A DNA stretch of 64,000 nucleotides, taken from NCBI GenBank assembly GCA_018060845.1, contig JAGOVG010000005.1:2530-66529 (forward strand), given 5' to 3'. Below, piece after piece: positions 6,276 through 57,107 of this stretch. The position numbers and the translations under genes were made by a program. The notes under the pieces are model-generated. The model was not told the DNA's origin and searched no databases. It was given only the letters and a program-made list of their open reading frames with translations. Within the stretch, counting starts at the first letter, position 1. Every line of letters starts with the position of its first letter. The stretch is from Candidatus Woesebacteria bacterium (GTDB taxonomy: Bacteria; Patescibacteriota; Microgenomatia; UBA1400; UBA12108).

Positions 6276-6293
6276 AGCGTTATAATAGCAAAA

Positions 6294-6332
6294 CACCCTC
6301 CTCTAGAGTGTCTTTCTCATTAGAGGAGGGTG
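6294..6332. terminator. Perfect 12-bp stem hairpin (caccctcctcta...tagaggagggtg). On the minus-strand transcript it is followed by UUUUGCUAUU, so it is a likely terminator of the small-gene operon upstream of dprA.
   Basis: Inverted repeat seen in the sequence, with a T-run on the minus strand. Confidence 0.5.
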
Positions 6333-6340
6333 TTCTAATC

Positions 6341-6472: not shown

Positions 6473-6496
6473 ATATACTCACCTCCTTTCTATTAT

Positions 6497-6745: not shown

Positions 6746-6755
6746 AAAATTCCAT

Positions 6756-6790
6756 TAAAAAACCCGCCTCTTGGTGCGGGTTTGTGTATT
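6756..6790. terminator. Bidirectional Rho-independent terminator (A-run, cccgc-ctcttggt-gcggg hairpin, T-run).
   Basis: GC hairpin flanked by A7 and T-rich runs. Lies between the convergent polyprenyl synthase and Cys-rich genes. Confidence 0.5.
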
Positions 6791-6941
6791 TTGCTTTTAA
6801 TTAAGCTATATATTTACACAATACCCAAAGCACCCCAGACGAGGAGGTGTTTAAAGTTAATGGTATAAATACGAGACTGGCTGTTCATAACTTTTGTAAG
6901 TATCCCAAAAACAGAATTCTCTTGCAATATATCAAAATATA

Positions 6942-7838
6942 TCAGTTTTGCCTGCTAGCCATCCAGTCCACTATTTCACGTAGCGTCGCATCATCCGTCG
7001 CGTCTTTTGCTAGCTCAGCGTGTCTTAGTATTTCAGCTTCCAGTTTTTCCTTCCCATACATCAGGGCAAAGCTATGCTTCCCCTCCCGAGCATCATTCCC
7101 GACGGGCTTACCAGTTTTACTGCTATCCCCCCACTCAGCCAGGTAATCATCACGGAGCTGAAACACCCATCCTAGCTCCATCCCATACTCAGTTAAGTTC
7201 TTTATTAATCCTGGCTTAGCGCCACCCAGTGTTGCTCCAAATACTAGCGGAAGTATGCAGCTGTACTCACCTGATTTGAGGGCCAGGATCTGCAGTAGAC
7301 TCGCTTCATCTGCTACCTGTAGCACATCTAGCATCTGCCCATATCCAACACGAGAAAAGTACTTCCCCCACACGGCCGTTGCATTTGTAATTTGTAAATT
7401 GGTTATTGGTAATTTAAGCGTAGCGAGCGTCTCCATCCCCCAACCAAATGTTAGATCCCCTGCACAGATGGCGAGAGCTTCGCCAGCGTGTCTATCACCA
7501 TACCTCGCATGCACTGTCGACACACCCCGTCGCAGATCATCCCGATCCATAATGTCGTCATGAATAAGGAGTCCTAGGTGAAATAGCTCCATAATTACTG
7601 CAGCTCGCACCACCTCACTCACACCCTCTTTGCTACCCCCAGCGATCTGGTAACCGAGGATAGTCAGTAGTCCGCGCATCCGCTTGCCACCATGCGAAAG
7701 CTCTCTCATGGCATTAACTGCCTTTACTAGTTCAGGTGAAATCTCTTTAACTTCCTCTAACCTCCTACCAAGCTCTGCCTCAATCTCAGTATCAATCAGT
7801 GGTTTCGATTGCTCAATAAAATTAGTTAACACGTTCAT
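6942..7838 (-). CDS. Polyprenyl diphosphate synthase (FPP/GGPP synthase family).
   Basis: Two Asp-rich motifs: LLIHDDIMDRDDLRRG and FQLRDDYLAEWGD. Confidence 0.85.
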   Translation of the reverse strand: MNVLTNFIEQSKPLIDTEIEAELGRRLEEVKEISPELVKAVNAMRELSHGGKRMRGLLTILGYQIAGGSKEGVSEVVRAAVIMELFHLGLLIHDDIMDRDDLRRGVSTVHARYGDRHAGEALAICAGDLTFGWGMETLATLKLPITNLQITNATAVWGKYFSRVGYGQMLDVLQVADEASLLQILALKSGEYSCILPLVFGATLGGAKPGLIKNLTEYGMELGWVFQLRDDYLAEWGDSSKTGKPVGNDAREGKHSFALMYGKEKLEAEILRHAELAKDATDDATLREIVDWMASRQN

Positions 7839-10982: not shown

Positions 10983-11546
10983 ATGTCCACCATCAAAGCT
11001 AATCAACTCAAAGGCGGGATGTTTGTCCTCTTTAAAGACGCTCCTCATGAGGTAGTAAAGTGCGAGTTCTACTTCCCCGGCAAAGGCAGCGCTTTTGCTC
11101 GAACTCGCCTTAAGAATGTACGTACTGGCAGTGTCCAAGATTTTACCTACAAAAGTAGCGAAACAGTCGAAGTGGTCGAGGTCGATACACTAGAGCTTCA
11201 GTATCTCTACGCAGATGGTGACACCTTCTACTTTATGAACCCTAGGACTTTTGATCAATTCGAAGTAAAGAAATGGGTCTTTGACGGCAAAGAAAGATAC
11301 CTCCTAGCCGAAGCCAAGATGTTCTTTAATCAATACGAGGGCGAGGTCATTGGTGTCCGTTTTCCCCCCAAAGTTAATCTTAAGATTACCGAGTCCCAAG
11401 ATGCCGTAGCCGGCAACACTGTAAACGCCGCCAAAAAACCCGCCATGACCGAGAATGGTTTTGAGGTTATGGTCCCCCTCTTTGTCAAAACTGGTGAGTC
11501 AGTAATCGTCGATACCGAAACAGGCGAATACGTTAGTCGAGCATAA
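10983..11546 (+). CDS. efp: Elongation factor P
   Basis: 187 aa. KGG motif at the N-terminus and conserved EF-P OB-domains. Confidence 0.9.
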   Translation: MSTIKANQLKGGMFVLFKDAPHEVVKCEFYFPGKGSAFARTRLKNVRTGSVQDFTYKSSETVEVVEVDTLELQYLYADGDTFYFMNPRTFDQFEVKKWVFDGKERYLLAEAKMFFNQYEGEVIGVRFPPKVNLKITESQDAVAGNTVNAAKKPAMTENGFEVMVPLFVKTGESVIVDTETGEYVSRA

Positions 11547-12310: not shown

Positions 12311-12547
12311 TCAATCTATATTTTCAGATCCGCTACGCTTATCCTGGGTCATCCATGGCAAGACTGTCGTTTCCCCCAATATCCGCTGTCTAAATGCTGC
12401 TCTTTTTTCTAAATATGATTTGACAGACATCCCAGGTTTGATATCGTCTACTATGTAATCAGCTTCTTCGCTGGGCAACCCCAGCTTTAGTAATTCTGCT
12501 AATATCTTTAATTTCTTATCTTCTCTGCCCACACTATTTTCGGTCAT
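12311..12547 (-). CDS. Hypothetical protein (78 aa)
   Basis: ORF overlaps the 3' end of the upstream EpmA-like gene by 14 nt in an operon-like arrangement. Confidence 0.3.
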   Translation of the reverse strand: MTENSVGREDKKLKILAELLKLGLPSEEADYIVDDIKPGMSVKSYLEKRAAFRQRILGETTVLPWMTQDKRSGSENID

Positions 12548-13580
12548 ATAATTCCTCTACCGGGAAAAAAAGTGTATCAGCAATGCTCGGTGTATCGGCA
12601 AATAGTGCGACCAGCCTGTCCACCCCGACAGCTATTCCCCCAGTTGCTGGAATACCTAGCTTTAGCGCTTCGATAAAATCCTCATCCATTGGATACTCGG
12701 TCTTACCTAGTTTTTTGCGCTCCAAGAGGTCTGCTTTACACCTACTCTCCTGCTCTCTCCAGTCCGTCAGCTCCGAAAAACAGTTCCCTAGCTCGTATCC
12801 TGCCAGATACACTTCCCATCGCTCCGCAAACCTTGGGTCTTTTGCTTTACGCGCGAGCGCAGCCTGGGACACAGGAAAATCGTACAGGATAGTCGGGCCA
12901 GCTACACCCAGCTTAGGTTCTATCTCATTTGCGATGATCTGGTTCCACATCTCTTCCCACGTCGAGTTCTCGTCGACTTGATACCCTTTATTTTTGCTCG
13001 CCACAAACAGCTTATCCCTATCCAGCATCGACTCGGTATCAATCTCTGCATACTTTTCAAAAGCTTGCGCAACAGATATCCTCTCCCACGGTGCCTTTAG
13101 CGAATATTCTTTACCTTGATACTTAAGTGTTGTTGCATTGTTGCTATGTTGCATTCTATTGTTTATCGCAATCATCATTTCCTCAAAATCTGCTGCCACC
13201 GTCATATAGTCACCTGGTGTGTGATACCACTCGAGGATGGTAAACTCTGGGTTGTGCCGACTAGACCGCCCCTCACCGTTACGAAAAGATTTGGCAATGG
13301 TAAAGATGGAGCCTGACCCAGCAGATAAGAGTTTTTTTAGTGCAAACTCAGGTGAGGACGGCAAAAAACCGTCCCACTTATTGCCATGATCATCTACTAG
13401 CTGAGTCTTAAATACCTCTAGGAATGGCTCGGTAGAAGGCGTGGGGAGTAGTAGCGGCACCTCTGCTTCATGAAATCCACGAGTCTTAAAAAATGAGCGA
13501 ATCGCGTCAATTACCTGCTCTCTCACCCAGTACTGGCGCCACAGCGCGGGATTAGCTTTTAGTTTTTGAAATGTTTTCAC
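12534..13580 (-). CDS. epmA: EF-P lysine ligase-like class II aminoacyl-tRNA synthetase paralog (EpmA/GenX/PoxA-like, i.e. LysRS catalytic core without an anticodon-binding domain).
   Basis: 348 aa. Class II aaRS motifs (FTILEWY, GYELGNCFSEL, GGIAVGVDRLVALF). No N-terminal OB domain. Lies ~1 kb from efp. Confidence 0.6.
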   Translation of the reverse strand: MKTFQKLKANPALWRQYWVREQVIDAIRSFFKTRGFHEAEVPLLLPTPSTEPFLEVFKTQLVDDHGNKWDGFLPSSPEFALKKLLSAGSGSIFTIAKSFRNGEGRSSRHNPEFTILEWYHTPGDYMTVAADFEEMMIAINNRMQHSNNATTLKYQGKEYSLKAPWERISVAQAFEKYAEIDTESMLDRDKLFVASKNKGYQVDENSTWEEMWNQIIANEIEPKLGVAGPTILYDFPVSQAALARKAKDPRFAERWEVYLAGYELGNCFSELTDWREQESRCKADLLERKKLGKTEYPMDEDFIEALKLGIPATGGIAVGVDRLVALFADTPSIADTLFFPVEELYDRK

Positions 13581-13882
13581 TCAAGTATCTTAACACTGTC
13601 CGGATTTAACACATATTGATCAGTTGGTCGAAGAGTAATGATCATAGCTTCATCGCCAAAACCTCCATGATCATCAAACCAACCCATCTTCTCCAGATCT
13701 TCTCGAGTAATTCCATGCTGCCAGTTACCTTGCGAAACCACCCAGTCAATAACCGATGCTTCCCACTTTAGCGCATCAAGTCCACACTTTTCCACTACCC
13801 CCTTAGCCACAGGATATCCTTGTCCTTCTTTGAGATTAAGATATTCCCGTACTGATATACCTAGAATTACTACCTCTGTCAT
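13577..13882 (-). CDS. Hypothetical protein (101 aa). Its stop overlaps the start of the EpmA-like gene.
   Basis: ORF with ATGA overlap. Confidence 0.35.
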   Translation of the reverse strand: MTEVVILGISVREYLNLKEGQGYPVAKGVVEKCGLDALKWEASVIDWVVSQGNWQHGITREDLEKMGWFDDHGGFGDEAMIITLRPTDQYVLNPDSVKILE

Positions 13883-13966
13883 ATATTGAACATTTTAATC
13901 GTTTGAATATTGTTTTCCTGACATTTTTTGACAAAAACTACCAGTACATCATGCATACTCTCCAGG

Positions 13967-14302
13967 TTAGCGCGTAATAACTTTGTGTATCTTGCATTGA
14001 GTGTAATCATCACATCGCACATTGCATTTGTTAACTGCCTCAGTTACAGTCGCGATATCTTTGGGGAGCTGCTCATTAATGTCAGCAAGGCTCTTCTCAT
14101 CACCATAGGCTCTAATATTCGTATCATTTATCATCGGATCAAGTCTTAAAAATTTGGGGATAAGTCTTAAAGCAGAGTTAACTACAAAATGTGGAGCAGT
14201 AATTGCAAAAACCCTGAGTGTGTGAGCTATTTTACCCTGTGAACCCTTACATTCAACCTTACTTGCATGTTGTTCCATTTCTACCAAAGCAGCATTACTC
14301 AT
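13967..14302 (-). CDS. Hypothetical protein (111 aa). Divergent partner of wHTH paralog C.
   Basis: ORF. Its leader contains a TATGGGGT motif shared with the leaders at 46764 and 50899. Confidence 0.35.
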   Translation of the reverse strand: MSNAALVEMEQHASKVECKGSQGKIAHTLRVFAITAPHFVVNSALRLIPKFLRLDPMINDTNIRAYGDEKSLADINEQLPKDIATVTEAVNKCNVRCDDYTQCKIHKVITR

Positions 14303-14382
14303 ATAATCCTTTCATATAATTATATATCTACCCCATAGTCTACATAGTAAAAATAATATTTCCTGACAAATTTTGACACCAG

Positions 14383-15417
14383 GTGTATACTATGGGATAT
14401 ATGAAAATAGCTTGGGACTGGTCACTAGAGAGCGAGGCAGAGAGGATACTTGAGATGTCCCTCAAGATCAGTAATGGCTTCTACCACCTCCATCACTTCC
14501 TCCCCCTCCCATTTGACCTAAAAAATACTCGAAAAGATACCTCCCACCATGTCTATCTCCCAGATCTACCCTATACCAAGATCCCTCGGTACTGGGAGTC
14601 TACAAGTCAGGTTGGGGCAACCTACCCCCTCAAACAACTTGGTTCTATCTCCGACCAGTTAGCGCAGCATCTTACCCTCCGCAAACTCCCTTCGCTCGAT
14701 AGCCATATAGTCCAACCAGATGCCGAGATCTATCTCCCCCTAGTGATTACTTGGCTACAATACACGTTCCCTAGACTTCCGCTCCCAGAGACAATCTTGA
14801 TCCACCCCAGCTACTTTGGCACCGGCGGCTCATTCTATTTTAATCAAGAGTCAAAAACAGTCATCCTCTATCTGCGCCATGATCAAGGCCTCTACCCCCT
14901 AGTTGAGATCCTCTTAACTGCACTCCTTAGGCCTCATGCAGGCGAGACCATCTATGCCGACTGGGAAAAGACAGAGTACCTAGTCGACTATCTACTCCTC
15001 GAGAGTAATCTAAAAGATCTCCTGCCCTCTCCTTCTTCTTGGACTCCTACTACCATCCCACCCCACTACTCACTATTCACAGTCAAAGAGTCGACAGACT
15101 TTGTCAAAAAAATAGGACTTAGCAACCATGTCGAATGCCAGTTTAGTCTAGAGGGTGATACTATCTGCTTTAACCATGTCCTCCTGACAGACTTTACAGC
15201 TAGCCAACATGCATTACTTTCTGCCTTGATCTCGCGCTCACCCGCGCCCTTAACCGTAGACGAGATCGCAGACTTAATATTCACCAAAGATGAAAAATTT
15301 AGCCTGAGTGCAATCGGCAAAACTATAGAGAGGCTTCGCAAAAAACTAACGACACTCGGCATCAGTAGTAGCTATATCGCAACAGCGAGCGGTGTCGGGT
15401 ATTATCTCAAGAATTAA
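14383..15417 (+). CDS. Standalone transcriptional regulator with a C-terminal OmpR/PhoB-type winged-helix DNA-binding domain and no receiver domain (paralog C of three).
   Basis: The C-terminal region (LTVDEIADLIF...TIERLRKKL...SGVGYYL) has the trans_reg_C pattern. The N-terminal domain aligns with 50966..52000 (LPxLPYTxIPRxWES, ILLTALLRP/ILAAIFRP). Confidence 0.55.
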   Translation: MYTMGYMKIAWDWSLESEAERILEMSLKISNGFYHLHHFLPLPFDLKNTRKDTSHHVYLPDLPYTKIPRYWESTSQVGATYPLKQLGSISDQLAQHLTLRKLPSLDSHIVQPDAEIYLPLVITWLQYTFPRLPLPETILIHPSYFGTGGSFYFNQESKTVILYLRHDQGLYPLVEILLTALLRPHAGETIYADWEKTEYLVDYLLLESNLKDLLPSPSSWTPTTIPPHYSLFTVKESTDFVKKIGLSNHVECQFSLEGDTICFNHVLLTDFTASQHALLSALISRSPAPLTVDEIADLIFTKDEKFSLSAIGKTIERLRKKLTTLGISSSYIATASGVGYYLKN

Positions 15418-15422
15418 GTAAT

Positions 15423-16478
15423 CTAATACCGTAGCCGTGCCCCTACCTTTACCTTCTTTAGCAGCCTCTCATCAGTCAGTAGTTTGCCGCACCCTCTTAC
15501 TACCGCCGCCATCGGCTCCTCACACACGTAAACAGGCATGCTAGTTGCTTCGGATACCATTTTATCTATGCCTCTAATTAGCGATCCACCCCCAGCCATC
15601 GTGATCCCATGCTGGATAATATCCGATATCAGCTCAGGCGGTGTCTCCTCTATTACGTCCATTACCCCTCGTACTATCTGCTGCAGAGTAGGCGCCATCG
15701 CCTCTCTCACTTCACTCGCATTAAACTTCATCGATTTTGGCAGCCCTGATCCTAGGTCTCGTCCCCTCACCACTGCCTGCAGTCCATCTAGCTTGCTATC
15801 AGCAGTTGCACTACCTACACTCGTTTTTACTTCTTCGGCACTCGCATCGCCCAGTAACAGCCCATACTTTACTCTGGAAAAATGAATAATCGACTCTGTC
15901 AGCTCATCCCCCGCCACCCGTAGTGATTTATTCAAAACAATGCCACCAAGCGACAGCACCGCAATCTCCGTAGTCCCACCACCTATATCTATGATCATCT
16001 GCCCTCTAGGCTCATCAATCGGTAGTCCTGCTCCGATCGCCGCGGCCATCGGCTCTTCAACCAAAAATGCTTCTCTGGCTCCCGCCGAAACCGCCGCCTC
16101 AGACACTGCCCTTCGCTCTACTTCGGTCACCCCCGACGGGATACCAATAATCACCCTTGGCCTTGGCACTTTTGCAATCCATGGCGAATTTTCGTGAACT
16201 TTTTTAATATAGAAATCAAGCATCGCAAGCGCCCCATCGTAGTCAGCAATCACCCCATCGCGTAGTGGTCGCACCGCCTCGATCGCTTGCGGCGTCTTAC
16301 CCGCCATTAACTTGGCTTCGCTCCCAATCGCGAGGACCGCTCCAGTTTTTTTGTGCCGTGCCACGTAGCTAGGCTCCCTTATTAAGATCCCTTTATTCTT
16401 TACAAAAACTAGCGTGTTGGCAGTCCCGAGGTCGATCCCCATATCCATCGAAAAAAGTCCCAAAAGTGCATTAAGCAT
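15423..16478 (-). CDS. mreB: Rod-shape-determining actin homolog MreB (paralog 1).
   Basis: GIDLGTANTLVF... phosphate-1 motif. DIGGGTTE phosphate-2. Overall MreB signature. Confidence 0.9.
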   Translation of the reverse strand: MLNALLGLFSMDMGIDLGTANTLVFVKNKGILIREPSYVARHKKTGAVLAIGSEAKLMAGKTPQAIEAVRPLRDGVIADYDGALAMLDFYIKKVHENSPWIAKVPRPRVIIGIPSGVTEVERRAVSEAAVSAGAREAFLVEEPMAAAIGAGLPIDEPRGQMIIDIGGGTTEIAVLSLGGIVLNKSLRVAGDELTESIIHFSRVKYGLLLGDASAEEVKTSVGSATADSKLDGLQAVVRGRDLGSGLPKSMKFNASEVREAMAPTLQQIVRGVMDVIEETPPELISDIIQHGITMAGGGSLIRGIDKMVSEATSMPVYVCEEPMAAVVRGCGKLLTDERLLKKVKVGARLRY

Positions 16479-41518: not shown

Positions 41519-41944
41519 ATGGCTAAAAAAATCAAAACAATCATCAAAGTCTTCCCTATGGGCGGTGCGGCTAATCCAGCCCCTCCCATCGGTCCTGCAC
41601 TCGGTCAACATGGTGTTAACATCATGGAGTTTGTTAATCAATACAACAAAGCTACTGCAGACAAAAAAGGTCAAAAAGTCCCCGCCGAGATCACTATCTA
41701 TGAGGATCGCACCTTTACCTTTGTCATCAAGCTCCCCCCAGTCTCCGAGATGATCAAGCAAGAGCTCAAGTTAAAGAGTGGCTCAGGCGTCCCCAACAAA
41801 ACCAAGGTTGGCAAGCTTAGTAAAGCTCAGCTCGAAAAAATCGCCAAAGAAAAAATGCCAGATCTCTCAGCTAGTACTCTCGAGGCCGCGATGAAGACCG
41901 TCGCCGGTACCGCCAAGAGCATGGGTGTAGACGTCGAAAGTTAA
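41519..41944 (+). CDS. rplK: 50S ribosomal protein L11
   Basis: [22 protein letters not shown] signature. Confidence 0.9.
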
Positions 41945-42660
41945 GAGTCATCTGACTGGTAGGTTTCACGAGTTTCTATCGCCAATAATTTTGACTCTAC
42001 TTCATCAGGCATAATTAAATCTTCCGATGCAGCAATCATACTCTCAATCTCGCTTCTTTCAGAACGTTTACCAATAAAATTACCTAAGAAGTCTAAACTC
42101 TTGCTAAGCTTTCCATCAGCAACAGCATCAGTAATTGACTTACTCGCTAGCACAGACGCCGCGAGGAGTAGTGTACCGAAAAAGTCTCCAGGAATATCAA
42201 TTGTATTATTGAAAATAGTAGTTGTCTCTAGCCATCCAGCCAGGAATACACCCACACCCACTGAGCCGACAAACCTTTTTATTGGATCTATTCCTGAGTG
42301 CCCACTTTCCTTCAGTTTCTTATCAATGCGCCGTGATATTAGTTCTGAAAACATAAAACCTAGTGCTGCAATAGTTCCGTCCCCCGTATTCATATCAAAA
42401 AGTCTCTGTATGCCCTCTTGCAACCTTTGGTTCTGCCACAGATCATCTCCCCATGAGTCTACCGCTCTTGTATTCTCCCAAAACCCATAGAAAAACGCTG
42501 CAAAGTAAGGAACTATATCCCTAGTTTTAACAAACCAAAGAATTTCGTCGCCTAGTTTATTACTATTACTCTCTCTCTCTGGATTATCGATCACTACGTC
42601 GACTCTAGTACTCTGTCCGACTCCTTGATCTATGTCATGTTTAACTGTATCTCCACTCAC
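41941..42660 (-). CDS. Hypothetical membrane protein, inserted antisense between rplK and rplA
   Basis: ORF with hydrophobic segments. Confidence 0.35.
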
Positions 42661-42718
42661 TCAGCTATCTTCTCACATTTATCTTGCCTCCATCAACCAC
42701 TTTTGCTATAACATAAAC

Positions 42719-42937
42719 ATGCTAACCAATTCAGACAAGGATGATATCAGAGATTTAATCCGCGAAGAACTTGATCGCGTCGAAAACAAAATAGATAAAG
42801 TCCTAAGTATAGTAACCAGAACAGATCAAGAACACCAGATCACCCAGGCCAAAGTGAACAAGCTAGAAAAACGTACTACCAATATCGAGAAAAAAGTTGG
42901 GATCAAACCTCCAGCCTCTACCACCGTCTTTGCCTAA
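42719..42937 (+). CDS. Hypothetical small coiled-coil protein. Start moved to MLTNSDKDD.
   Basis: ORF with a heptad-like charged pattern. Confidence 0.3.
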   Translation: MLTNSDKDDIRDLIREELDRVENKIDKVLSIVTRTDQEHQITQAKVNKLEKRTTNIEKKVGIKPPASTTVFA

Positions 42938-43939: not shown

Positions 43940-44092
43940 TCCTATAACTTGACATTTATCCCGTATCACTGCGGTCATTTTCATCAGGGTGTCCGAGTTT
44001 CTCGGACTGAAGATTAAACTACATTTAATATCAACGACTAGCGCGGACGCAAACAATATATTAATAACCAAAGTGTAATATACTGATCATAT

Positions 44093-44959
44093 ATGACAGA
44101 AACACTACCAATAGCCCAAGAATGGAATCAATATAACGGAGAACTCCGCAACACAATTGTTAGCGCGCTCGCTACTAAAGGCTCGCCTCTCTCTGCAGGC
44201 GACGTAGTCGATGGACCTCCCACATTACCTCTTATTGGACTATTAGCCGAATCTCAGGGTGAGGCGGCAAGATACCACAAATTATATCCCGACAAAAAAT
44301 TATCAGTTGTCGAAGTTATGGCTAGTATTCGTAACTTTTCAGATCAAGTAAGAGCCGCCGAACTCGCGGGAAAAAACGCCTTAGATTTTCACTATGTCGA
44401 CGGTAGTAGCGAAAAACTAACACCCCGAGCCGCCAATGCTAGGCTACTCGGATTTACAATCTATGCACTCGATCGTCATCTAATCGACCGAGAAATGATA
44501 GAGGATATCCTTAAAAACGAGGATCCCTTAGAATTCTGGAAGAAACAGGTAAAAGATCACTCAGTTGATGGGAACGAAATGCTAAATGAACTCATTATTA
44601 AACATCCGTACCACCCTTTTAACATCCAAGCCAGACAACTGATACCTAGCGCTGAAAGCCCTGATATTATTTTTGAAGATAATCCTGTTATGCAAACTGT
44701 CCTTGATGCACACAAAATGCATCTACGTTTACAACAAGCTCGCCCCCATGGAACAACTTTGCAAGATCTACTCGTGACACAGCAAGCTACCCTTGAGCTT
44801 GTCAGCATGTACCACCCACTCCCTGATGAAGCTCTACAAATCAATACTCTCGCTTTTTTGGGCAAAAAGACTGTTGATGATAATGAATTTAGTGCGCTCA
44901 GCACAGCTATCACAAAATACATGTACGAAACCAAGTATCCTGCCCTCATCTCGCCCTAA
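44093..44959 (+). CDS. Hypothetical protein inserted between rplA and rplJ
   Basis: ORF only. Confidence 0.35.
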   Translation: MTETLPIAQEWNQYNGELRNTIVSALATKGSPLSAGDVVDGPPTLPLIGLLAESQGEAARYHKLYPDKKLSVVEVMASIRNFSDQVRAAELAGKNALDFHYVDGSSEKLTPRAANARLLGFTIYALDRHLIDREMIEDILKNEDPLEFWKKQVKDHSVDGNEMLNELIIKHPYHPFNIQARQLIPSAESPDIIFEDNPVMQTVLDAHKMHLRLQQARPHGTTLQDLLVTQQATLELVSMYHPLPDEALQINTLAFLGKKTVDDNEFSALSTAITKYMYETKYPALISP

Positions 44960-45101
44960 TCTATATAGTGTTATACCCTAGTACAAACACTTATTCACTT
45001 GTAATTCAACACTACCCCTGCTACAATACTCCTAATCCTCAAGACAACAGGCAATTACCTAAGTCCTGTCTAAGGCAAGTCACCACAAGTTGTGGTAATT
45101 A

Positions 45102-46145: not shown

Positions 46146-46174
46146 AAAAACCCCGTCATAAGGCGGGGTTTTTA
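46146..46174 (+). terminator. Rho-independent terminator after rplL (ccccg-tcataagg-cgggg + TTTTT)
   Basis: GC hairpin followed by a T-run. Confidence 0.6.
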
Positions 46175-46196: not shown

Positions 46197-46763
46197 TTAC
46201 CATGATCTAGTTGATAGCTTTGGCGCAAAATGACCTTGAAGATCAAAATTCAAGTCTCCATGTATCTTCGGGTCGTACTCCTGCCATTTTCCTTTCACCA
46301 TTACCCTATACTCATACCACTCTGCCCCATCTGGCTCTGTATGCAGCGTTACTCTTTTATCTGTATGCTGAATTATCGCACCCCTCCTTCGACTACCCTT
46401 AAATCCATTTCTCATATATCCATCAACAATCGGGAAATAATCGCGCTCATCATCTGGATTATCTAATCGTTTCCCTTGAGACACAGTAAGAAATTCCAAA
46501 GCATCCTTGGCTCCATGATAATATTCTTCGATTTCACGATTAGTCAAGTCACATGGCTCTTTTCCTAACTCACCAATCATATATATGCCTACAATAGTGC
46601 TTAATGTATGCGCTGTTCTCGCCGCCATGAGTTCAATCAACTGACCAGGATTAGAGTTTCTATCGACAACTTTAATAATTTTCCCCAGTAAATCTAGATT
46701 TGCGTATCCACGACTATCTAGTATTCTATAAAGCTGAAGTTCAGTTTGTGTACCCATACACAC
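46197..46763 (-). CDS. Hypothetical protein (188 aa). Divergent partner of wHTH paralog A. RBS AGGAGG.
   Basis: ORF. Its ~45-nt leader is nearly identical to that of gene 50269..50898. Confidence 0.4.
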   Translation of the reverse strand: MCMGTQTELQLYRILDSRGYANLDLLGKIIKVVDRNSNPGQLIELMAARTAHTLSTIVGIYMIGELGKEPCDLTNREIEEYYHGAKDALEFLTVSQGKRLDNPDDERDYFPIVDGYMRNGFKGSRRRGAIIQHTDKRVTLHTEPDGAEWYEYRVMVKGKWQEYDPKIHGDLNFDLQGHFAPKLSTRSW

Positions 46764-46861
46764 CTCCTATGTTTTGTTTAACCCCATAATATTGACAGAT
46801 CCTGGTATAATTGCTTGATTAGTTAGTTGACACTAATATGTCAACTTGACAGAGTATCGTT
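46764..46861. promoter_or_regulatory. Divergent intergenic control region. It holds the conserved leader (CATACACACCTCCTATGTTTTGTTTAACCCCATAATATTGACAGATC), TTGACA-type repeats, and the 7-bp inverted repeat GTTGACA-ctaata-TGTCAAC.
   Basis: Near-identical ~45-nt block also at 50896..50940. The palindrome was read directly from the sequence. Confidence 0.5.
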
Positions 46862-47947
46862 ATGAACAGTTATAGTCAAATGCCAATCAACTACCTCGAA
46901 CCTCAGTATTCAACCTGGGGCAGATATCTCTCATCGCATCAAACATGTAACATATTTTTTCTTAAGAACACAGGTATCATCCCGCGTATACTCCAGTTTG
47001 TTGACTATTACCATGGTGTTGAAAAAATAAAACCAGTTGTCCTCGATCTAGAAGCACTCAATGCTACTGACCCTCATAATCTCCTGACTGTATTATCCGA
47101 GGCTGGAAGCAAACCAACCATAATAATAGCCAGAGACCTATTCCTTCAGCCAGGTGCTAGCCGACTCGAGAAGGTTCTGGAACAATACTATGTCTCATCA
47201 ACTAGTGGTCTATTAATCGTTCATGAATGCGCACCACACGAACTTTATAACAACTATGAGCGAGCATCATGTCTCTATGTACACCCTCAATTATTCAAGC
47301 TACCCTCAGAAAAGTCAGTGTTAACAGAATACATTAAGAGTACATCTAGATTATGGAAACTGACCTTAACTCCGGCAATAATAGATGAAATTATTGCCTA
47401 CTCAGGCAATATCCCTTGGTTACTCAACGAAAGCATAAGACTCTGCAGCGAAAACCCAAACCTCAAATTTATTGAAATATGCAAACTCCCGAGTCTGAGC
47501 AGCAGAGTAATGTCGTTCTATTCGACCCTCCCCAAGATCTACAAAATACAGCTAAATAGTAAAATGGATCAAGTGGCAAAAGACGAATTAATCGGTTTTG
47601 GACTCATGCAAAGCGACCATCTAATTGGTGAACATTTAAACGAATCTACACATAACTACAAAAAAGAAAAGTTAACAACCACTCCAACCCAGATCCTTCT
47701 TAACTCTATCGACATCTCTGCCTTTTTCTCAAACAGTGAATTGCGACTCATCAACTTACTAAATACTACATCTAAAGAAACTCTAACACGTGATGAAGTG
47801 GCAAATACATTTTATAATACAGACGAGTCATACAGCGACTGGGCCCTATCTCAGATGATCACTAGACTTAGGGCTAAAATAAACAAGCACGAGATACCCT
47901 TAACTATCACGACCAAAAGAGGTATAGGATATGGGATCTCCCGCTGA
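46862..47947 (+). CDS. Standalone regulator with a C-terminal OmpR/PhoB-type winged-helix domain (paralog A; its N-terminal domain diverges from B and C)
   Basis: C-terminal ETLTRDEVANTFY...SQMITRLRAKINK...TKRGIGYGI matches the trans_reg_C pattern. Confidence 0.5.
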   Translation: MNSYSQMPINYLEPQYSTWGRYLSSHQTCNIFFLKNTGIIPRILQFVDYYHGVEKIKPVVLDLEALNATDPHNLLTVLSEAGSKPTIIIARDLFLQPGASRLEKVLEQYYVSSTSGLLIVHECAPHELYNNYERASCLYVHPQLFKLPSEKSVLTEYIKSTSRLWKLTLTPAIIDEIIAYSGNIPWLLNESIRLCSENPNLKFIEICKLPSLSSRVMSFYSTLPKIYKIQLNSKMDQVAKDELIGFGLMQSDHLIGEHLNESTHNYKKEKLTTTPTQILLNSIDISAFFSNSELRLINLLNTTSKETLTRDEVANTFYNTDESYSDWALSQMITRLRAKINKHEIPLTITTKRGIGYGISR

Positions 47948-49319
47948 GCAGTTTTTACCATTATCAGTAGTCGCGAGTATTACTGGAATCTGGCCACAAC
48001 CACTCCATGAACCAGGTGTAGTATCGATTCTAAAAGAATATCCAAAAGGTGCTGTTGGCATCGGCTTGAATGCTACGAGAAGTACTCTCATCGAAAGCAC
48101 TTCAGTATCAGGTAGTTGCGCTGTTCCCGATGGGCATTATCAGGGAGAACAATCAGGATTAACACGGGCACTCTCTCCGGTTTTTACCAACCGCCAAGTT
48201 AACGTTAGAGCTGGAAAATCCGATGACGCTGCCCTACTCCCACCCGAGGCAACTAATACTTTTTCCCATGCCTCAAATCTAGATTTGATTGAAGATGATA
48301 GTCCCGACGCCACAGCCTGGAAACAAACTCTTAACTTTCAGTCTGGACCTAACATAGATATTGTCGAAAAATCTAAATTTCGTAATCTGGAATCAGTCAA
48401 TGCAATCCTCTTTGCTATCTACCCAGCCTACACCTACCTTAACTCACTAGACAGAGATGGATATTACAGTCTTTTTCGCCACGAAGGACGTATCACAATT
48501 TTAAGGTATCACAATTTTAATAATAGAACTCATGGAGGAACCAACTTTATAGCTATTCCTAATGGCAGAGACGAGTATAACGAGCGTAGTATCGGCCGCG
48601 TACACCAAACGCGAGCATTAGCCCACAACTCAAATGGTGAACCAGGTTTTTTCACAGATCCTCGATTTTATGATGAACCTAGCCGGCTACTCATAGACTC
48701 ACAAGACCCTAGCATTCGCCTCAAATGGCTTGCTCAAGAACTACGTACCCAAACACGAAAACCCTCTCATCATGTCGACTTTGGTAGTCACCACCTCGAA
48801 ACACTGAGGTATTCAACAGATAAAATTAACCCTAACGACGCTTCTCGCATTACAGCAGAAGTTTTTAACGCACTGTTTGAGAATTACGACTTCACAGCGG
48901 GTCAACTCAAGTCTCTCGGTCTTTGGGGAACAGTATTTGCTCAAAATAATGCTAGAGAGGTCAAGCAAAGCCTAGAACGTGCTGAAGCGACTTACTTTAG
49001 AGACAACGCTTCTCACGGAGGAGTATTTAGTAAGCTCAGCAGCCATCTATTTGCCGAGCTTATGGCTATCGCCCTGCCAATCCCTCTAAGTCAATTTATC
49101 ACCCGCCCAACCAAAAGCGATCGAGTTATCGCAACTTCGTACATTGGTCATCATAGTCCACGTTCTCTCTGGGCAGATCGACAGCTTACCATGGCAAAAA
49201 ACGCATTAGAAAAAACCAAACGTATCGCTAAATCACGTGGAGACGAAAACACAGTTAAGATGTTGGAGCACGATATTCACTACTTCAGCAATGAAATCTC
49301 AAAATCTAGCTGGGATTAA
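47931..49319 (+). CDS. Hypothetical protein (462 aa), likely co-transcribed with wHTH paralog A (17-nt overlap)
   Basis: ORF only. Confidence 0.4.
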   Translation: MGSPAEQFLPLSVVASITGIWPQPLHEPGVVSILKEYPKGAVGIGLNATRSTLIESTSVSGSCAVPDGHYQGEQSGLTRALSPVFTNRQVNVRAGKSDDAALLPPEATNTFSHASNLDLIEDDSPDATAWKQTLNFQSGPNIDIVEKSKFRNLESVNAILFAIYPAYTYLNSLDRDGYYSLFRHEGRITILRYHNFNNRTHGGTNFIAIPNGRDEYNERSIGRVHQTRALAHNSNGEPGFFTDPRFYDEPSRLLIDSQDPSIRLKWLAQELRTQTRKPSHHVDFGSHHLETLRYSTDKINPNDASRITAEVFNALFENYDFTAGQLKSLGLWGTVFAQNNAREVKQSLERAEATYFRDNASHGGVFSKLSSHLFAELMAIALPIPLSQFITRPTKSDRVIATSYIGHHSPRSLWADRQLTMAKNALEKTKRIAKSRGDENTVKMLEHDIHYFSNEISKSSWD

Positions 49320-49540
49320 CCTTCTTTTTGCGTACTTCTCTGCATAGCTTCAGCCTCTCCTGCACCCTGATAAAACTTTTCAAATAAGTCTTTCCAATCT
49401 TTAAATCTTGTTTTTTGATACGAAGAGCCATCTAGAGTGCCTGGGGGAAAGTTGTATTTCTTTTCCCACAACCTCTTGGCTTCTTCACTCATTCCCTCAA
49501 CCTCTTGTAAAGCATCAGTAGCAGCACTCATTCTACTCAT
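49316..49540 (-). CDS. Hypothetical small protein
   Basis: ORF only. Confidence 0.25.
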   Translation of the reverse strand: MSRMSAATDALQEVEGMSEEAKRLWEKKYNFPPGTLDGSSYQKTRFKDWKDLFEKFYQGAGEAEAMQRSTQKEG

Positions 49541-49635
49541 ATCTATATATTATCAAATTATCGCTCGTCAACTTGACACCCATAGTCAGCTAAGAGGTCA
49601 AGCGAAGTTTGTGAAGCAGGTTTAATATACAGAAC

Positions 49636-49893
49636 ATGGCCATAGGTGAAAAAGATGTCTTATACGATCCACAAGACTTAAAGGAGCAGATCATTGCTGC
49701 ACTAACCCCTGCTCAACTGGCACGTATCGAAGAGTACAGTAACATGGCTGAAGTCGCAGGAGTTACAGTCAAAGCAGAATATGGCCCACCCGCACAAATC
49801 TATATAACAAATAGTCTCCGTCAAGGAGCCACAACACCATTACCCAAGGGTAGCGAGCTAGCCCAAATCTTACAGAATAGAACAAGAACCTAG
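49636..49893 (+). CDS. Hypothetical protein (85 aa)
   Basis: ORF only. Confidence 0.3.
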   Translation: MAIGEKDVLYDPQDLKEQIIAALTPAQLARIEEYSNMAEVAGVTVKAEYGPPAQIYITNSLRQGATTPLPKGSELAQILQNRTRT

Positions 49894-49898
49894 GAATA

Positions 49899-50243
49899 AT
49901 GATAAATATCGCTCACTTTGACAATGATCCACTTGTGTTCAGAAACACCGAAAAATTTCTTAAGCCTGCTGGTATAAATATTGTTAGAAAGGTGGAGTCT
50001 CTCAAGGATGCTCGAGTAATTATCCCTACTTTATTTGATCTTGGGGTCATCCTAGCTCTAATCGATGGCGATATCGGTGGAGAAGAGATTGCCAGACTCC
50101 TCGCTCAGGTTTGCCCATCAATCATCCGCGTAGGTTACACAGCTGAAGCTCGTTTTGATAACTTGCATGAGTACATTTTCAAAACCACTCCACCAGATGA
50201 GTTTGTTAGGTTAGTTAAATTGTATACAGCTCAAACAACATAA
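49899..50243 (+). CDS. Single-domain CheY-like receiver protein (orphan response-regulator receiver domain)
   Basis: Acidic pair FDND near the N-terminus. Candidate phospho-acceptor Asp in LALIDGDIGG. Conserved T (VGYTAE) and K (IFKTTPP) in the expected order and spacing. Confidence 0.45.
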   Translation: MINIAHFDNDPLVFRNTEKFLKPAGINIVRKVESLKDARVIIPTLFDLGVILALIDGDIGGEEIARLLAQVCPSIIRVGYTAEARFDNLHEYIFKTTPPDEFVRLVKLYTAQTT

Positions 50244-50268
50244 TACACGGCTGTACTACATAATCGAT

Positions 50269-50898
50269 CTAATATCTAAAAGCGTCCCAAAGATGAGGTG
50301 CTTCACCGTTAGCAAATGAGGTAATCCCATTCTGTATATAACGTTTACTAACTTCATCTATGTCATCAAAGGAAACACCAACTGGTCTTACATCGCTAAG
50401 TATTGAATTAATAGAGCGCAGCAATGTGTGTGGAAACCAATATATCTTATTATCTAATCCGCCGTAGACAAATTCTATTTCATTTCGATATTCGATACAG
50501 TCAAATATAGGACTAGGCCACTCAGAAATATCTATGGGCACACGATATGGCCCACCCCAGAGTGTTCCACTCCCGTGCTTCTTGATATATACCCCCCTAT
50601 CCTTCGCACTGCCATTACAGGTTTTTGAGACCACGCTCACTGCTCGCTGCAGATCCCCTCGGTATTGCAGTATATGCTCACCGTACATGGCTCTGTTTGC
50701 ATCTGGTATTAGTGAAGCCTGATCAAACGCGAGTTGATACAACGCAATCGAAGTCCACCAAGATCTATATCCATCATCGCCATTTGCAGCATTATGCCAT
50801 TCTACTAGTTCTGGGCGTACTAACCTGCCACTACCATCAAGCATGTGCTTACTAATCAATTTAAACGCATCCTTCCAAGTTTCTCTTTGGCCTATCAT
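50269..50898 (-). CDS. Hypothetical protein (209 aa). Divergent partner of wHTH paralog B. RBS AGGAG.
   Basis: ORF. The leader is conserved with that of 46197..46763. Confidence 0.4.
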   Translation of the reverse strand: MIGQRETWKDAFKLISKHMLDGSGRLVRPELVEWHNAANGDDGYRSWWTSIALYQLAFDQASLIPDANRAMYGEHILQYRGDLQRAVSVVSKTCNGSAKDRGVYIKKHGSGTLWGGPYRVPIDISEWPSPIFDCIEYRNEIEFVYGGLDNKIYWFPHTLLRSINSILSDVRPVGVSFDDIDEVSKRYIQNGITSFANGEAPHLWDAFRY

Positions 50899-50965
50899 AC
50901 ATATCTCCTAAGTTCATTTAACCCCATAATCTTGACACATCTGAGATAATTATCTTGACACTTTT
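50899..50965. promoter_or_regulatory. Divergent intergenic control region, paralogous to 46764..46861 (TTTAACCCCATAATCTTGACACATC). It has two CTTGACAC repeats 24 bp apart and a TGACGTCA palindrome at the start of the + gene.
   Basis: Direct alignment of the two intergenic regions. Confidence 0.5.
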
Positions 50966-52000
50966 ATGACGTCAAAGAACTGGACTATACCAACTATTAA
51001 CTTTACCCACTCTCCAGAGCTGGAGGCTCGGCGTATCCTCTTTGTCGCCGGTAGCCTCGCCCGTGGCTGGTACCAAAAACACAACTTCCTCATCCTCCCC
51101 GAGCTTGCTGCGCGTGCTCCATCCAGCCAGGTCATCCTCCCCAACCTACCCTATACCACAATCCCTCGCTTTTGGGAGAGTGTGGCCAAACTCAAACTCG
51201 TGACTCCACAGCTCGCGCCTGCCCCGCTCATTGCCGCTACCGAGGCATTGTGTAAGCCATTCTACAAACCAGCGCTATATGTTAGTCATTTATCAGAGCT
51301 AGAAAAATCATATAATCAAGTCAAAGATAACTTTTGGAATACTTTATTTACTCTATTTCCCAGCTACTCCTCCAGAGTAAAAGTTATTACTATCATCAGT
51401 TCTCAGTACGGATCGAGCTCCAGCTTTAACTTGGCTACCACAGAATATAGTTCGATCACAATATATCTACGATCTGATACCAAAATCGATAAACTACTCT
51501 GGTCTATCCTTGCCGCAATCTTTCGACCAAAAATGCAAGATGAGCAAAAATATAGCTGGGAAGAGGTCGAGGCCGTAATAGACTGGCTCATGTCCGAGTC
51601 CAGCCTGGCAGCTAAGCTATCACACCCCCACCCAACTCTCACCAATCTGCGAGCCAACCAACTGTCTAAGTATCGCCAGGATAGCGAGGCATATCTCTCT
51701 AGTCTTGGTATCTCTGGCGTGCTACGCCTAGAAAAGCTTAGTAGTAGCTACTCATATGGTGACACCAAGATCTCTGATTTGACTACCAAACAGCAGATCC
51801 TACTCGATCTACTCCTCGTGAGACGCGGTTTAACCGTAAGTTACGACGAAATCGCCGCATCACTTTGGCCCGACGACGAAGATTGGTCTCTGTATGCCAT
51901 AACCAAAGAAGTTCAAAGACTGCGAGACAAAATAAAAAGTTGTGGGATCAACTCTCCACTCATCCACGCACACCGCAAACTCGGCTACTCGATCGCCTAG
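50966..52000 (+). CDS. Standalone regulator with a C-terminal OmpR/PhoB-type winged-helix domain (paralog B)
   Basis: C-terminal LTTKQQILLDLLLVRRGLTVSYDEIAASLW...RLRDKIK...HRKLGYSI. The N-terminal domain aligns with 14383..15417. Confidence 0.55.
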   Translation: MTSKNWTIPTINFTHSPELEARRILFVAGSLARGWYQKHNFLILPELAARAPSSQVILPNLPYTTIPRFWESVAKLKLVTPQLAPAPLIAATEALCKPFYKPALYVSHLSELEKSYNQVKDNFWNTLFTLFPSYSSRVKVITIISSQYGSSSSFNLATTEYSSITIYLRSDTKIDKLLWSILAAIFRPKMQDEQKYSWEEVEAVIDWLMSESSLAAKLSHPHPTLTNLRANQLSKYRQDSEAYLSSLGISGVLRLEKLSSSYSYGDTKISDLTTKQQILLDLLLVRRGLTVSYDEIAASLWPDDEDWSLYAITKEVQRLRDKIKSCGINSPLIHAHRKLGYSIA

Positions 52001-52022
52001 AACAACCTATTACTTATCCACA

Positions 52023-52060
52023 CCTGCCCGCAGTGCTATAGCACAGCTATTGCAGGCGGG
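52023..52060. repeat. Family R2 small hairpin repeat, copy C (cctgcccgcagtgctatagcacagctattgcaggcggg). The inner stem carries a compensatory G-C pair where copies A and B have A-T.
   Basis: Alignment with the copies at 21714 and 62528. Confidence 0.5.
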
Positions 52061-52290
52061 TTCCCCCATTTATCCATACCACTACTGGTAGTGCCGCGCC
52101 CCTAACGAAGCCATAGGCGGAGTGGGGTCCTAGGTCGCACAATACATCTATATCAATCTATTCATTTATAACTACTAGAACATCTTCATAGATCTATACA
52201 TATCATATACATAGTCAAATGATATCCTATTGACACTCACCCATACAATTGCTAATATCAACACATAACCTGTAATGAGCTCGCCGAATT

Positions 52291-52497
52291 ATGAACAACT
52301 CAGTCGATCTAAAAAATCTCCCCGACCTACTCACAGTTAGAGAAGTAGCTGACCTCCTCCGTGTCTCTCCCCTCACCCTCAAACGCTGGGGCAAACGCGG
52401 CAAGCTCCCTGCTATTCGCATCAACTCGCGCGGTGACCGCAGGTACAAAAAAGAACAGGTTCAATGGCTACTTGGAATTAATCCAGATCAAGCTTAA
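52291..52497 (+). CDS. Small excisionase/MerR-type HTH (HTH_17-like) DNA-binding protein
   Basis: LLTVREVADLLRVSPLTLKRWGKRGKLPAIRINSRGDRRYKKEQV pattern. The 4-nt stop overlaps the convergent dus gene. Confidence 0.5.
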   Translation: MNNSVDLKNLPDLLTVREVADLLRVSPLTLKRWGKRGKLPAIRINSRGDRRYKKEQVQWLLGINPDQA

Positions 52498-56108: not shown

Positions 56109-57107
56109 TTACTTAAGTGCCCGCCGATACATCTCAATATTCTCAACCGCCCTCCCCGTCCCCTTGACCACACAGAGCATTGGCTCCTCGGCCACATACG
56201 CTGGTACTCCTACTTCGCGAGTCAGGAGTGTATCCAGATTTCTCAAGGTTGAGGTCCCACCACTCATCACAATCCCTCGGTCAATGATGTCACTCGAGAG
56301 CTCGGGTGGAGTCTCCTCAAGGACCGCCTTAACTACTCCTACGATTTGTGACAATGGTCTCGCTAGAGCTGTAGTCACATCACTCGAAGTGATAGTAATC
56401 GTCTGTGGGAGACCTGACACCGAGTCACGCCCCTTAACTTCCATACTCTCTTCTTTGGGGAGCTTGGTAGCTGAGCCTATCTTGAGCTTGATCATCTCTG
56501 CAGTTTGGTCGCCAATTATCAAAGAATGGCTCCTTCGAATATAATCCGCAATCGCCTCATCAAGTTTGTTCCCGCCGACTCGCGCACTTTTGTGCACTAC
56601 TACTCCGCCCAGTGCTATGACCGCCGCCTCTGCCGCTCCACCACCAATATCTAGGATCATATGTCCCGCTGCCTCGGCGATCGGCATGCCGGCACCTATG
56701 GCTGCTGCTAGAGGTTCGTCAATCAGATAAGCTTCTTTAGCCCCTGCCGAGAGTGTGGCATCCAATGCGGCTCTCCTCTCTACCTGAGTACAGCCTGCCG
56801 GGACACAAATCATTACCTCTGGTTTAAACCACGAGCGCGCGCCTAAGGAGCGAGATATAAAGAAACGCAGCATCGCCTCAGTGACCGCATAATCAGCGAT
56901 CACACCGTCCTTCATTGGGCGGCTGGCTATGATATTGCCAGGTGTACGACCTAGCATTATCTTTGCTTCGTTCCCGACTGCAACTACCTTTTGATCCATC
57001 ACCGAGACCGCAACAACTGTGGGCTCATTTAGCACTATCCCCTCACCCGCTACCCAGACTAATGAGTTAGCTGTCCCTAGATCTATGCCGAGTCGTTTTG
57101 CAAACAT
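56109..57107 (-). CDS. mreB: Rod-shape-determining protein MreB (paralog 2)
   Basis: GIDLGTANSLVWV, DIGGGAAE. 332 aa. Confidence 0.85.
   Translation of the reverse strand: MFAKRLGIDLGTANSLVWVAGEGIVLNEPTVVAVSVMDQKVVAVGNEAKIMLGRTPGNIIASRPMKDGVIADYAVTEAMLRFFISRSLGARSWFKPEVMICVPAGCTQVERRAALDATLSAGAKEAYLIDEPLAAAIGAGMPIAEAAGHMILDIGGGAAEAAVIALGGVVVHKSARVGGNKLDEAIADYIRRSHSLIIGDQTAEMIKLKIGSATKLPKEESMEVKGRDSVSGLPQTITITSSDVTTALARPLSQIVGVVKAVLEETPPELSSDIIDRGIVMSGGTSTLRNLDTLLTREVGVPAYVAEEPMLCVVKGTGRAVENIEMYRRALK

Follow-up and report, generated by a model that had tools for sequence, protein, structure and literature searches.

Receiver-less OmpR-type winged-helix regulators beside conserved divergent promoters and strain-variable genes in a Candidatus Woesebacteria contig

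In this analysis, we examined a 64,000-nt stretch of contig JAGOVG010000005.1 (assembly GCA_018060845.1, positions 2,530 to 66,529) from a Candidatus Woesebacteria bacterium, referred to here as the window, which carries three genes, A, B and C, whose products end in an OmpR-type winged helix-turn-helix (wHTH) domain. A preliminary description of the region had called these three open reading frames (ORFs) correctly, and it had also noted that each is transcribed divergently from a small nonhomologous gene. The three divergent pairs are separated by 67 to 104 nt, and their partners, termed cargo genes here, are mutually unrelated. Related loci used for comparison are labelled L001, L004 and so on. 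The main features of the three modules are as follows.

13967-14302, minus strand: 111-amino-acid (aa) orphan, cargo gene of module A, divergent from A
14303-14400: bidirectional promoter A, with ACCCCATAGT at 14330-14339, CTGACA-N4-TTGACA within 14359-14378 and a -10-like TATACT at 14386-14391
14383-15417, plus strand: regulator A, a predicted zincin-like N-terminal domain (N-domain) and an OmpR-type wHTH (Trans_reg_C E value, 4e-10)
46197-46757, minus strand: 186-aa orphan (188-type), cargo gene of module B, 71% identical to its L004 ortholog with a ratio of nonsynonymous to synonymous substitution rates (dN/dS) of 0.30
46758-46861: bidirectional promoter and leader B, with ACCCCATAAT at 46781-46790, TTGACA at 46792-46797, an extended -10 element TGgTATAAT at 46803-46811, the inverted repeat AGTTGACA-N6-TGTCAACT at 46825-46846 and TTGACA at 46846-46851
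46862-47947, plus strand: regulator B, a predicted degenerate AAA+-like N-domain, a helical region and then an OmpR-type wHTH
47931-49319, plus strand: protein X (462 aa), overlapping B by 17 nt, a member of a fast-evolving family always found 3' of B
50269-50898, minus strand: 209-aa orphan, cargo gene of module C, dN/dS of 0.12 to 0.25
50899-50965: bidirectional promoter C, with ACCCCATAAT at 50921-50930 and two ATCTTGACAC boxes at 50929-50938 and 50952-50961
50966-52000, plus strand: regulator C, a predicted zincin-like N-domain and then an OmpR-type wHTH

Regulator proteins and their families

The C-terminal OmpR/PhoB-type wHTH that had been assigned to all three proteins is upheld by profile searches and by the predicted fold. 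The Pfam model Trans_reg_C matches the final ~75 residues of A, B and C above its gathering score (E values of 4e-10, 5e-10 and 1e-10, respectively; 40 to 42 bits against a cutoff of 26.2), and the NCBIfam matches to OmpR-family regulators are confined to the C-terminal third. Protein C has a 100%-identical counterpart at NCBI, annotated as a 'winged helix-turn-helix domain-containing protein' of a Candidatus Woesebacteria bacterium, which places the window in a genome of the candidate phyla radiation (Microgenomates). When the six reading frames of the window were searched with a profile, this type of wHTH domain appeared exactly three times. No Response_reg or other receiver domain was detected in A, B or C at any threshold, either in Pfam and NCBIfam or by fold, and a scan of the ~50 larger window ORFs detected neither HisKA nor HATPase_c; the lack of receivers and of a histidine kinase gene had both been pointed out previously. 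The proteins therefore carry the C-terminal Trans_reg_C domain of OmpR/PhoB response regulators but not the receiver with its phospho-acceptor aspartate, and we found no link of the three loci to two-component signalling. Both the A/C and the B families have a one-component architecture, with input and DNA-binding output on one polypeptide and no phosphotransfer domains.

A and C align as paralogs along their entire length (29% identity across 336 residues; E value, 1e-30), and both carry the motif LPxLPYTxIPRxWES. A full-length pair with this motif had been recognized earlier, but the labels had been mixed: the pair consists of 14383-15417 and 50966-52000. B, in contrast, aligns with A or C over only the ~70 residues of the wHTH, and profile-profile comparison of its N-domain with that of A/C gave a probability of 0.04. 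Three-way paralogy is therefore rejected, and the earlier view of three paralogs forming one expanded family is wrong; the families are lineage restricted, as had been proposed, but they do not constitute a single family. Rather, the sequences define two regulator architectures, with unrelated putative sensor domains, that have in common an output domain and a promoter layout. Homologs and conserved upstream DNA indicate that A probably starts at ATG 14401 (MKIAWDW); for the module B cargo gene, the probable start is ATG 46757, which is preceded by an AGGAGG ribosome-binding site.

The profile of the A/C N-domain, which matches A at 3e-80, was used in an exhaustive HMMER search and recovered at least 580 clusters, formed at 50% identity, with E values of 1e-3 or less, 442 of them at 1e-10 or less. 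Among the best 150 of the 580 clusters, nearly all members are 330 to 350 aa long, and the two-domain architecture is therefore fixed. A single-pattern scan of species-representative genomes located 14 A/C loci: eight are titled Woesebacteria, Amesbacteria or Shapirobacteria, and the remaining six bear the generic record title 'uncultured Gammaproteobacteria'. The informatively named organisms fall in the Microgenomates, and one homolog is annotated as Collierbacteria. Nine clusters of the B family were recovered by a word-indexed search; since B alleles from neighbouring strains are only 30 to 33% identical, the family must be larger than this. No relatives of either family were found in viral contigs, and an origin of the modules from a phage or mobile element was rejected on that basis.

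The AlphaFold model of C (predicted local distance difference test score [pLDDT], 86.5; 17-sequence alignment) shows three strands followed by a helix at 174-193 and a second at 198-211, an order that, as a candidate assignment made without superposition, we take to be that of the zincin active-site helix and then the helix of the third metal ligand. The zinc-binding and catalytic motif of zincins is lacking, however: HExxH occurs in 1 of 154 members of the A/C family, at a nonhomologous position. The helix at its place reads [IL][AV]E[AG]IL[TS][SA]LTR (consensus xxExxxTxxTR across the 154 members), with W198-x-E200-x-E202-xxx-D206 downstream, and in the C subfamily, the window protein included, the putative catalytic Glu of this helix is replaced by Trp. 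Residues E20, R23, R169, D171, R187, E200, E202 and D206 are near-invariant, and E179 is present in 102 of the 154 members. Our confidence in calling this domain zincin-like is only moderate, because a Foldseek search of a regulator model against the PDB recognized the wHTH but not the N-domain, and neither a profile search of PDB sequences nor member-by-member Pfam scans gave a match to it. This ~250-aa domain may be a ligand- or peptide-binding pseudoenzyme that would have lost its metal-binding histidines.

The model of B (pLDDT, 74.8) has a three-layer alpha/beta fold in its N-domain, and the structural matches of this domain are AAA+ proteins, not receivers. It is predicted to be a degenerate AAA+/Orc1-Cdc6-like domain in which the Walker A motif is missing: GxxxxGK[ST] is absent from all 12 B-family sequences, its position being taken by a conserved FFLKNTGI[IL]PR, and H121-E122-C123-x-P125 is invariant. 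The recognition helix of the B wHTH (S-D-W-A-L-S-Q..I..R-L-R-K) is also invariant, even among alleles that are only 30% identical overall.

Promoters, boxes and exchange of the divergent genes

The intergenic TTGACA-type repeats that had been reported are real, conserved and nonrandom. The exact 10-mer ACCCCATA[AG]T has three copies in the 64 kb, all of them within the three divergent intergenic regions, where it sits 23 to 28 nt 5' of the cargo start codon on the cargo coding strand. The B and C promoters share TTTAACCCCATAAT[AC]TTGACA[GC]ATC..TG.(T/G)ATAAT and are ~81% identical over 58 bp, forming direct repeats 4.1 kb apart. In promoter C, the two ATCTTGACAC boxes form TTGACA-N17-TTGACA bracketing TGaGATAAT (50942-50950), and this layout around an extended -10-like TGnGATAAT is kept down to 46% protein identity.

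At distant A/C-family loci the box motif reads (A)TCTTGAC-N5-TTGAC; a search of both strands of related loci totalling 219 kb gave 10 copies of TTGAC-N5-TTGAC, six of which lie within 100 nt 5' of a regulator. A TATAAT-like hexamer ends 5 to 6 nt before the regulator ATG at 10 of 15 distant A/C-family loci, a distance that implies leaderless mRNAs. The 8-bp inverted repeat of the B leader (46825-46846) is conserved in L001, L004, L025 to L027, L032 and L033. In the B alleles of L001 and L033 both arms are altered together, from TTGACA/TGTCAA to CTGACA/TGTCAG (UA to CG), and the repeat might act as an operator specific to the allele or form a hairpin in the leader. A metagenome scan with a 19-nt promoter motif gave eight matches, three of them true B modules and the remainder at about chance level by a rough estimate, and an Rfam scan of the window returned only tRNAs.

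The suggestion that each regulator has a variable cargo gene was borne out, since orthologous regulators elsewhere adjoin unrelated small genes. The window and L001 have rplJ-rplL DNA that is 97% identical and C proteins that are 89% identical, but B proteins that are only 30% identical. Between 46123 and 50176 there is no nucleotide similarity except for the 90-bp B promoter, which is 93% identical with both flanks replaced; the cargo of module B in L001 is a paralog of the 209-aa family together with an unrelated 193-aa gene. L027, in turn, carries the same allele of B (76% identical) and X (69%) as the window but a replaced cargo, and homology begins precisely at 46755, the cargo start codon. 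L004 retains the 188-type cargo (71% identical) beside a B allele that is 33% identical to that of the window; cargo and regulator alleles therefore assort independently, which argues against a tightly coevolving protein pair. The B cargo is replaced by unrelated genes in L001, L027, L025, L026, L032, L033 and L030, and the nine B modules hold at least five to seven unrelated cargo families beside near-identical promoters.

Modules A and C also vary. Protein A, EpmA (the elongation factor P [EF-P] lysine aminoacylase) and MreB of L024 are 83, 84 and 99% identical, respectively, to those of the window, and the segment 13582-14319 has no counterpart there, apart from a copy of the regulator-A box; DNA homology resumes at 14320. 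Unrelated ORFs of 94 and 87 aa replace the 111-aa cargo. At module C, unrelated genes substitute for the 209-aa cargo in L007 and L011. In these sequence comparisons, conservation is higher in the shared promoter than in the gene on either side of it.

The dN/dS values of the cargo genes (0.12 to 0.30) indicate purifying selection, and the cargo genes are therefore real genes. No function for the 188-type, 209-aa or 111-aa cargo came from Pfam, NCBIfam, PADLOC, PHROGs or PDB sequences, and since homologs of the 209-aa protein form only four clusters among 5.8 billion proteins, they give no functional lead. The B-module cargo proteins of L027 (815-1258, minus strand), L025 (150-587, minus strand) and L026 (994-1509, minus strand), which are unrelated by BLAST, have in common the cysteine pattern GCxxCxLR ... 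CP[AV][LI] and may represent one very divergent family of small zinc-binding proteins.

The divergent arrangement extends to the rest of the A/C family. A small divergent ORF lies ~10 to 100 nt upstream of the regulator at about 11 of the 14 A/C genome loci and at all six related loci as well (in L006, the contig ends within the partner); by BLAST, the partners are mutually unrelated across the A/C loci.

Genes beside the modules

Four further features lie in or next to the modules.

13577-13882, minus strand: 101-aa orphan ORF, overlapping the start of epmA by 4 nt, inside the strain-variable segment 13582-14319
13914-13933, plus strand: second copy of TTTCCTGACAnnTTTTGACA, 32 nt 5' of the start of the 101-aa/epmA operon, retained in L024 (3240-3255)
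49636-49893, plus strand: 85-aa ORF, 67% identical in L004
49899-50243, plus strand: 114-aa ORF, 75 to 77% identical in L011 and L027, weakly receiver-like

The preliminary description had placed a 462-aa gene between two regulators 3 kb apart, which is true of those at 46862 and 50966, but had listed it only as an unknown gene. This gene encodes X, and B and X form a translationally coupled operon; X is therefore not a bystander. Members of the X family are ~400 to 460 aa long and are 20 to 28% identical across alleles and up to 69% identical within one allele; protein X has no match in Pfam, PDB, PADLOC or PHROG. Module B thus has a four-part layout of variable minus-strand gene(s), a promoter of ~100 bp, B, and X overlapping B by 17 to 20 nt. 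In L030 (metagenome contig Ga0209211_10045839), a B-type promoter and a cargo are present, with the B-like and X-like genes inverted so that they face the promoter; this arrangement may represent an inversion at the promoter.

The 114-aa ORF had been described as an orphan CheY-like receiver, an assignment that we regard as unproven, since its match to Pfam Response_reg (E value, 0.075; 13.6 bits) is below the cutoff of 30.2. The receiver region of the NCBIfam TorS model matches it at an E value of 0.006, no receiver was matched among PDB sequences, and, by eye, D8/D10, D56, T81-A-E-A and K95 stand at receiver-like positions. It is present in L011 and L027 and absent from L001 and L004. Searches of Pfam, NCBIfam, PADLOC, PHROGs and PDB sequences gave no function for this ORF or the 85-aa ORF.

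The regulator-A box, TTTCCTGACAnnTTTTGACA, has two exact copies in the window, at 14359 and 13914 (0.11 expected), and no third match appears in the 64 kb even when three mismatches are tolerated. Both copies are kept in L024, though the DNA between them is unrelated. The 101-aa ORF has no Pfam or NCBIfam match and resembles the syntenic part of L024 in neither nucleotide nor protein sequence. In the window, epmA is at 12534-13580 and efp at 10983-11546. Because that box, kept in L024, adjoins the 101-aa ORF/epmA operon, EF-P modification may belong to the regulon of A.

The surroundings of module C are stable. Orthologs of C that are 89, 82, 66 (two genomes), 47 and 46% identical always lie 5' of a small HTH_17 gene, which was not called at one of these loci, and then dus; at most of them, wecG, a GT4 glycosyltransferase gene and mreB follow dus, and rplJ-rplL lies 5' of the module wherever the contig extends that far. 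The small gene (52291-52497 in the window) encodes an excisionase/MerR-type, BldC-like helix-turn-helix (HTH) protein that is 92 to 97% identical where regulator C is 46 to 82% identical, and it gave the sole PADLOC match (mad1 model). The 290-nt noncoding gap between C and this gene (52001-52290) contains GC-rich palindromic stretches without an Rfam match, and its 3' half is conserved in L007 and L011 (~73 to 84%). In L007, a HATPase_c and DUF4325 gene pair (6195-7324) fills the slot between rplL and C, and in L026 a HEPN and nucleotidyltransferase gene pair (259-947) adjoins module B; gene types of both kinds are frequent in conflict or regulatory islands.

Elsewhere in the window, the nusG-rplK-rplA-rplJ-rplL cluster is interrupted by orphan genes at 41941-42660 (minus strand) and 44093-44959 (plus strand). 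L001 has different genes at both positions (41945-42793 and 43958-45017 of the window), with ribosomal genes that are 91 to 97% identical. The genes rpoB and rpoC do not lie 3' of rplL, where there is a strong terminator (46146-46173). Two mreB paralogs are present, one at 15423-16478, convergent with A (stop codons 5 nt apart), and the other at 56109-57107, four genes from C; both arrangements are syntenic in relatives. A 719-aa protein (24268-26427) has TrwB/TraG-D/HerA-type domains of the kind typical of coupling proteins in type IV secretion, and the several ORFs on its flanks lack a Pfam match.

Interpretation and relation to known systems

We consider it reasonably probable that A, B and C are autoregulated one-component transcription factors, each guarding a bidirectional promoter with a strain-variable cargo slot. 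In such a system, the OmpR/PhoB-type winged helix would be driven by a nonreceiver sensor domain and not by phosphorylation. The regulator gene would be transcribed from the compact bidirectional promoter, usually, across the zincin-like family, as a leaderless mRNA. The promoter carries at least two TTGAC(A) boxes, which are mostly direct repeats spaced by 10 bp and located at the -35 element or immediately 5' of it. PhoB and OmpR bind their DNA boxes as tandem dimers, and by analogy the wHTH may bind the TTGAC(A) boxes in the same way, thereby autoregulating the regulator and setting the expression of the divergent gene(s). The side of the promoter opposite the regulator is the cargo slot, in which small orphan genes are replaced by unrelated ones between related strains and the promoter and boxes are kept.

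Several observations weigh against this reading. A consensus sigma-70 scan of the B and C intergenic regions found no canonical -35/-10 pair; some TTGACA boxes may be plain promoter elements, because TTGACA is also the sigma-70 -35 consensus. The geometry of the boxes varies by subfamily, being mostly 10-bp direct repeats, with a 23-bp period in C and an inverted repeat in B. Beyond the recognition helix, the wHTH of the L001 B allele is 33% identical to that of the window, whereas the promoters are 93% identical. The model of B is of moderate quality, with pLDDT values below 50 around the putative P-loop, and both the binding of the boxes and the control of expression are predictions.

One alternative, which we regard as unlikely although it deserves some weight, is that the modules serve in conflict, whether as toxin-antitoxin, abortive-infection or defence systems, in which the regulator would act as an antitoxin-like autorepressor, by analogy with zincin/HTH pairs of the ImmA/IrrE type, and the variable cargo and X as effectors or toxins. 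The turnover of cargo and B-X alleles between near-identical strains would fit, as would the compact and presumably autoregulated bidirectional promoter, the content made up entirely of orphan genes and the HEPN/nucleotidyltransferase and HATPase_c/DUF4325 pairs of L026 and L007. However, PADLOC matched neither the regulators nor the cargo nor X, PHROG gave nothing informative, both regulator families went without relatives in viral contigs, and the window ORFs scanned yielded neither an integrase nor a transposase. In addition, the rplL-dus chromosomal position is kept down to 45% regulator identity, and the pairing of the 188-type cargo with two B alleles that are 33% identical runs contrary to tight toxin-antitoxin coevolution. 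It is less likely still that the boxes or promoter repeats serve chiefly as recombination sites at which cassettes are exchanged, as in an integron or shufflon, and not as operators, with the wHTH or the excisionase-like HTH as accessory factors. The breakpoints of cargo replacement do fall at the conserved promoter, the variable A segment of two genomes has a box copy as its sole conserved sequence, promoter C repeats promoter B in direct orientation (81% identity) at a distance of 4.1 kb, the B-X pair of L030 is inverted relative to its promoter, and the adjacent excisionase-family gene is extremely conserved. Nonetheless, neither the window ORFs scanned nor the related loci yielded a recombinase, the boxes hold a fixed relation to the -10 element and start codon in distant members, and ordinary homologous recombination between conserved flanks would suffice.

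Two further alternatives concern the N-domains. That of A/C might be an active, noncanonical, DNA-tethered metallohydrolase, for example, a protease acting on a repressor or cargo in the manner of ImmA/IrrE or Wss1/SprT, with acidic residues replacing HExxH. The near-invariant charged cluster, counting E179, speaks for such an activity; we nevertheless find it quite doubtful, as both zinc-ligand histidines are missing family-wide and the C subfamily has Trp for the putative catalytic Glu. It is highly improbable that A, B and C are atypical, phosphorylation-independent response regulators whose N-domains are receivers diverged beyond recognition, perhaps served by the 114-aa protein or a distant kinase. 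Their wHTH is C-terminal, as in response regulators, the N-domain of B has a three-layer alpha/beta fold, and a weakly receiver-like ORF lies in the island, but the A/C N-domain (~250 aa) has the beta-sheet-plus-helices topology of zincins and not that of CheY, that of B matches AAA+ proteins instead, no Response_reg match was obtained for A, B or C, no kinase was found among the window ORFs scanned, and the 114-aa ORF is missing from two of the related loci.

It can be envisioned, although we consider it rather unlikely, that the conserved ~60- to 100-bp bidirectional promoter with its TTGAC boxes and its resident wHTH regulator form a fixed docking and expression platform on which orphan genes are exchanged between coexisting strains, with the B-X sensor pair diversifying as well. 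The modules would then be a promoter-anchored gene-cassette system, possibly serving symbiont-host or interstrain conflict, and the boxes might be both operators and recombination anchors. If this is true, conservation resides in the regulatory DNA and variation in the genes.

To our knowledge, the Patescibacteria (candidate phyla radiation [CPR]) have tiny genomes and almost no characterized gene regulation. The present analysis defines two uncharacterized one-component regulator architectures, one of them represented by at least 580 clusters (50% identity) and equipped with a sensor that lacks a Pfam model, and provides candidate operator sequences together with a promoter layout that is probably leaderless. 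A further outcome is a set of orphan proteins whose expression is probably conditional. The conservation of the promoter over its flanking genes, with orphan swaps at its edge, offers a handle on the diversification of accessory functions in the CPR.

Receiver-less OmpR-type regulators are already known, e.g., ToxR/CadC and the SARPs. The literature searched held no description of the A/C or B families, and the combinations of these sensors with a C-terminal wHTH, the A/C sensor without a Pfam model and the conserved promoter with exchangeable flanking genes appear to be undescribed in the libraries and papers searched. Unlike the OmpR/PhoB response regulators (PhoB, OmpR, PmrA and KdpE), the proteins described here have no receiver or phospho-acceptor Asp and no kinase found in the window ORFs scanned, and their predicted zincin-like or AAA+-like input domain is twice the size of a receiver. 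The A/C family is reminiscent of ImmA/IrrE (COG2856), in which a zincin fold and a DNA-binding module form a small regulatory unit that is often near variable or mobile genes. ImmA/IrrE, however, has an intact HExxH, acts as a protease on a separate repressor and uses an XRE-type HTH, whereas the A/C proteins lack HExxH, are fused to an OmpR-type wHTH and have no detected sequence similarity to it. B differs from Orc1/Cdc6 and DnaA-type initiators in that it lacks Walker A, has an OmpR-type winged helix, is encoded in one operon with a variable protein and does not lie at an origin. The BrxR/CapW-type wHTH-WYL regulators of defence islands offer an analogy, since there, too, a conserved regulator and promoter stand beside interchangeable cargo, but the domains of A, B and C are unrelated to theirs, PADLOC gave no match, and the cargo consists of single small orphan genes and not of recognized defence systems. 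Finally, in ToxR/CadC/TcpP and SARP/AfsR/EmbR, the wHTH is N-terminal and is followed by transmembrane/periplasmic or BTAD/NB-ARC/TPR domains; in A, B and C, it is C-terminal and joined to other sensor domains, and, in contrast to the membrane-linked ToxR/CadC/TcpP, these regulators appear, as judged by eye, to be cytoplasmic.

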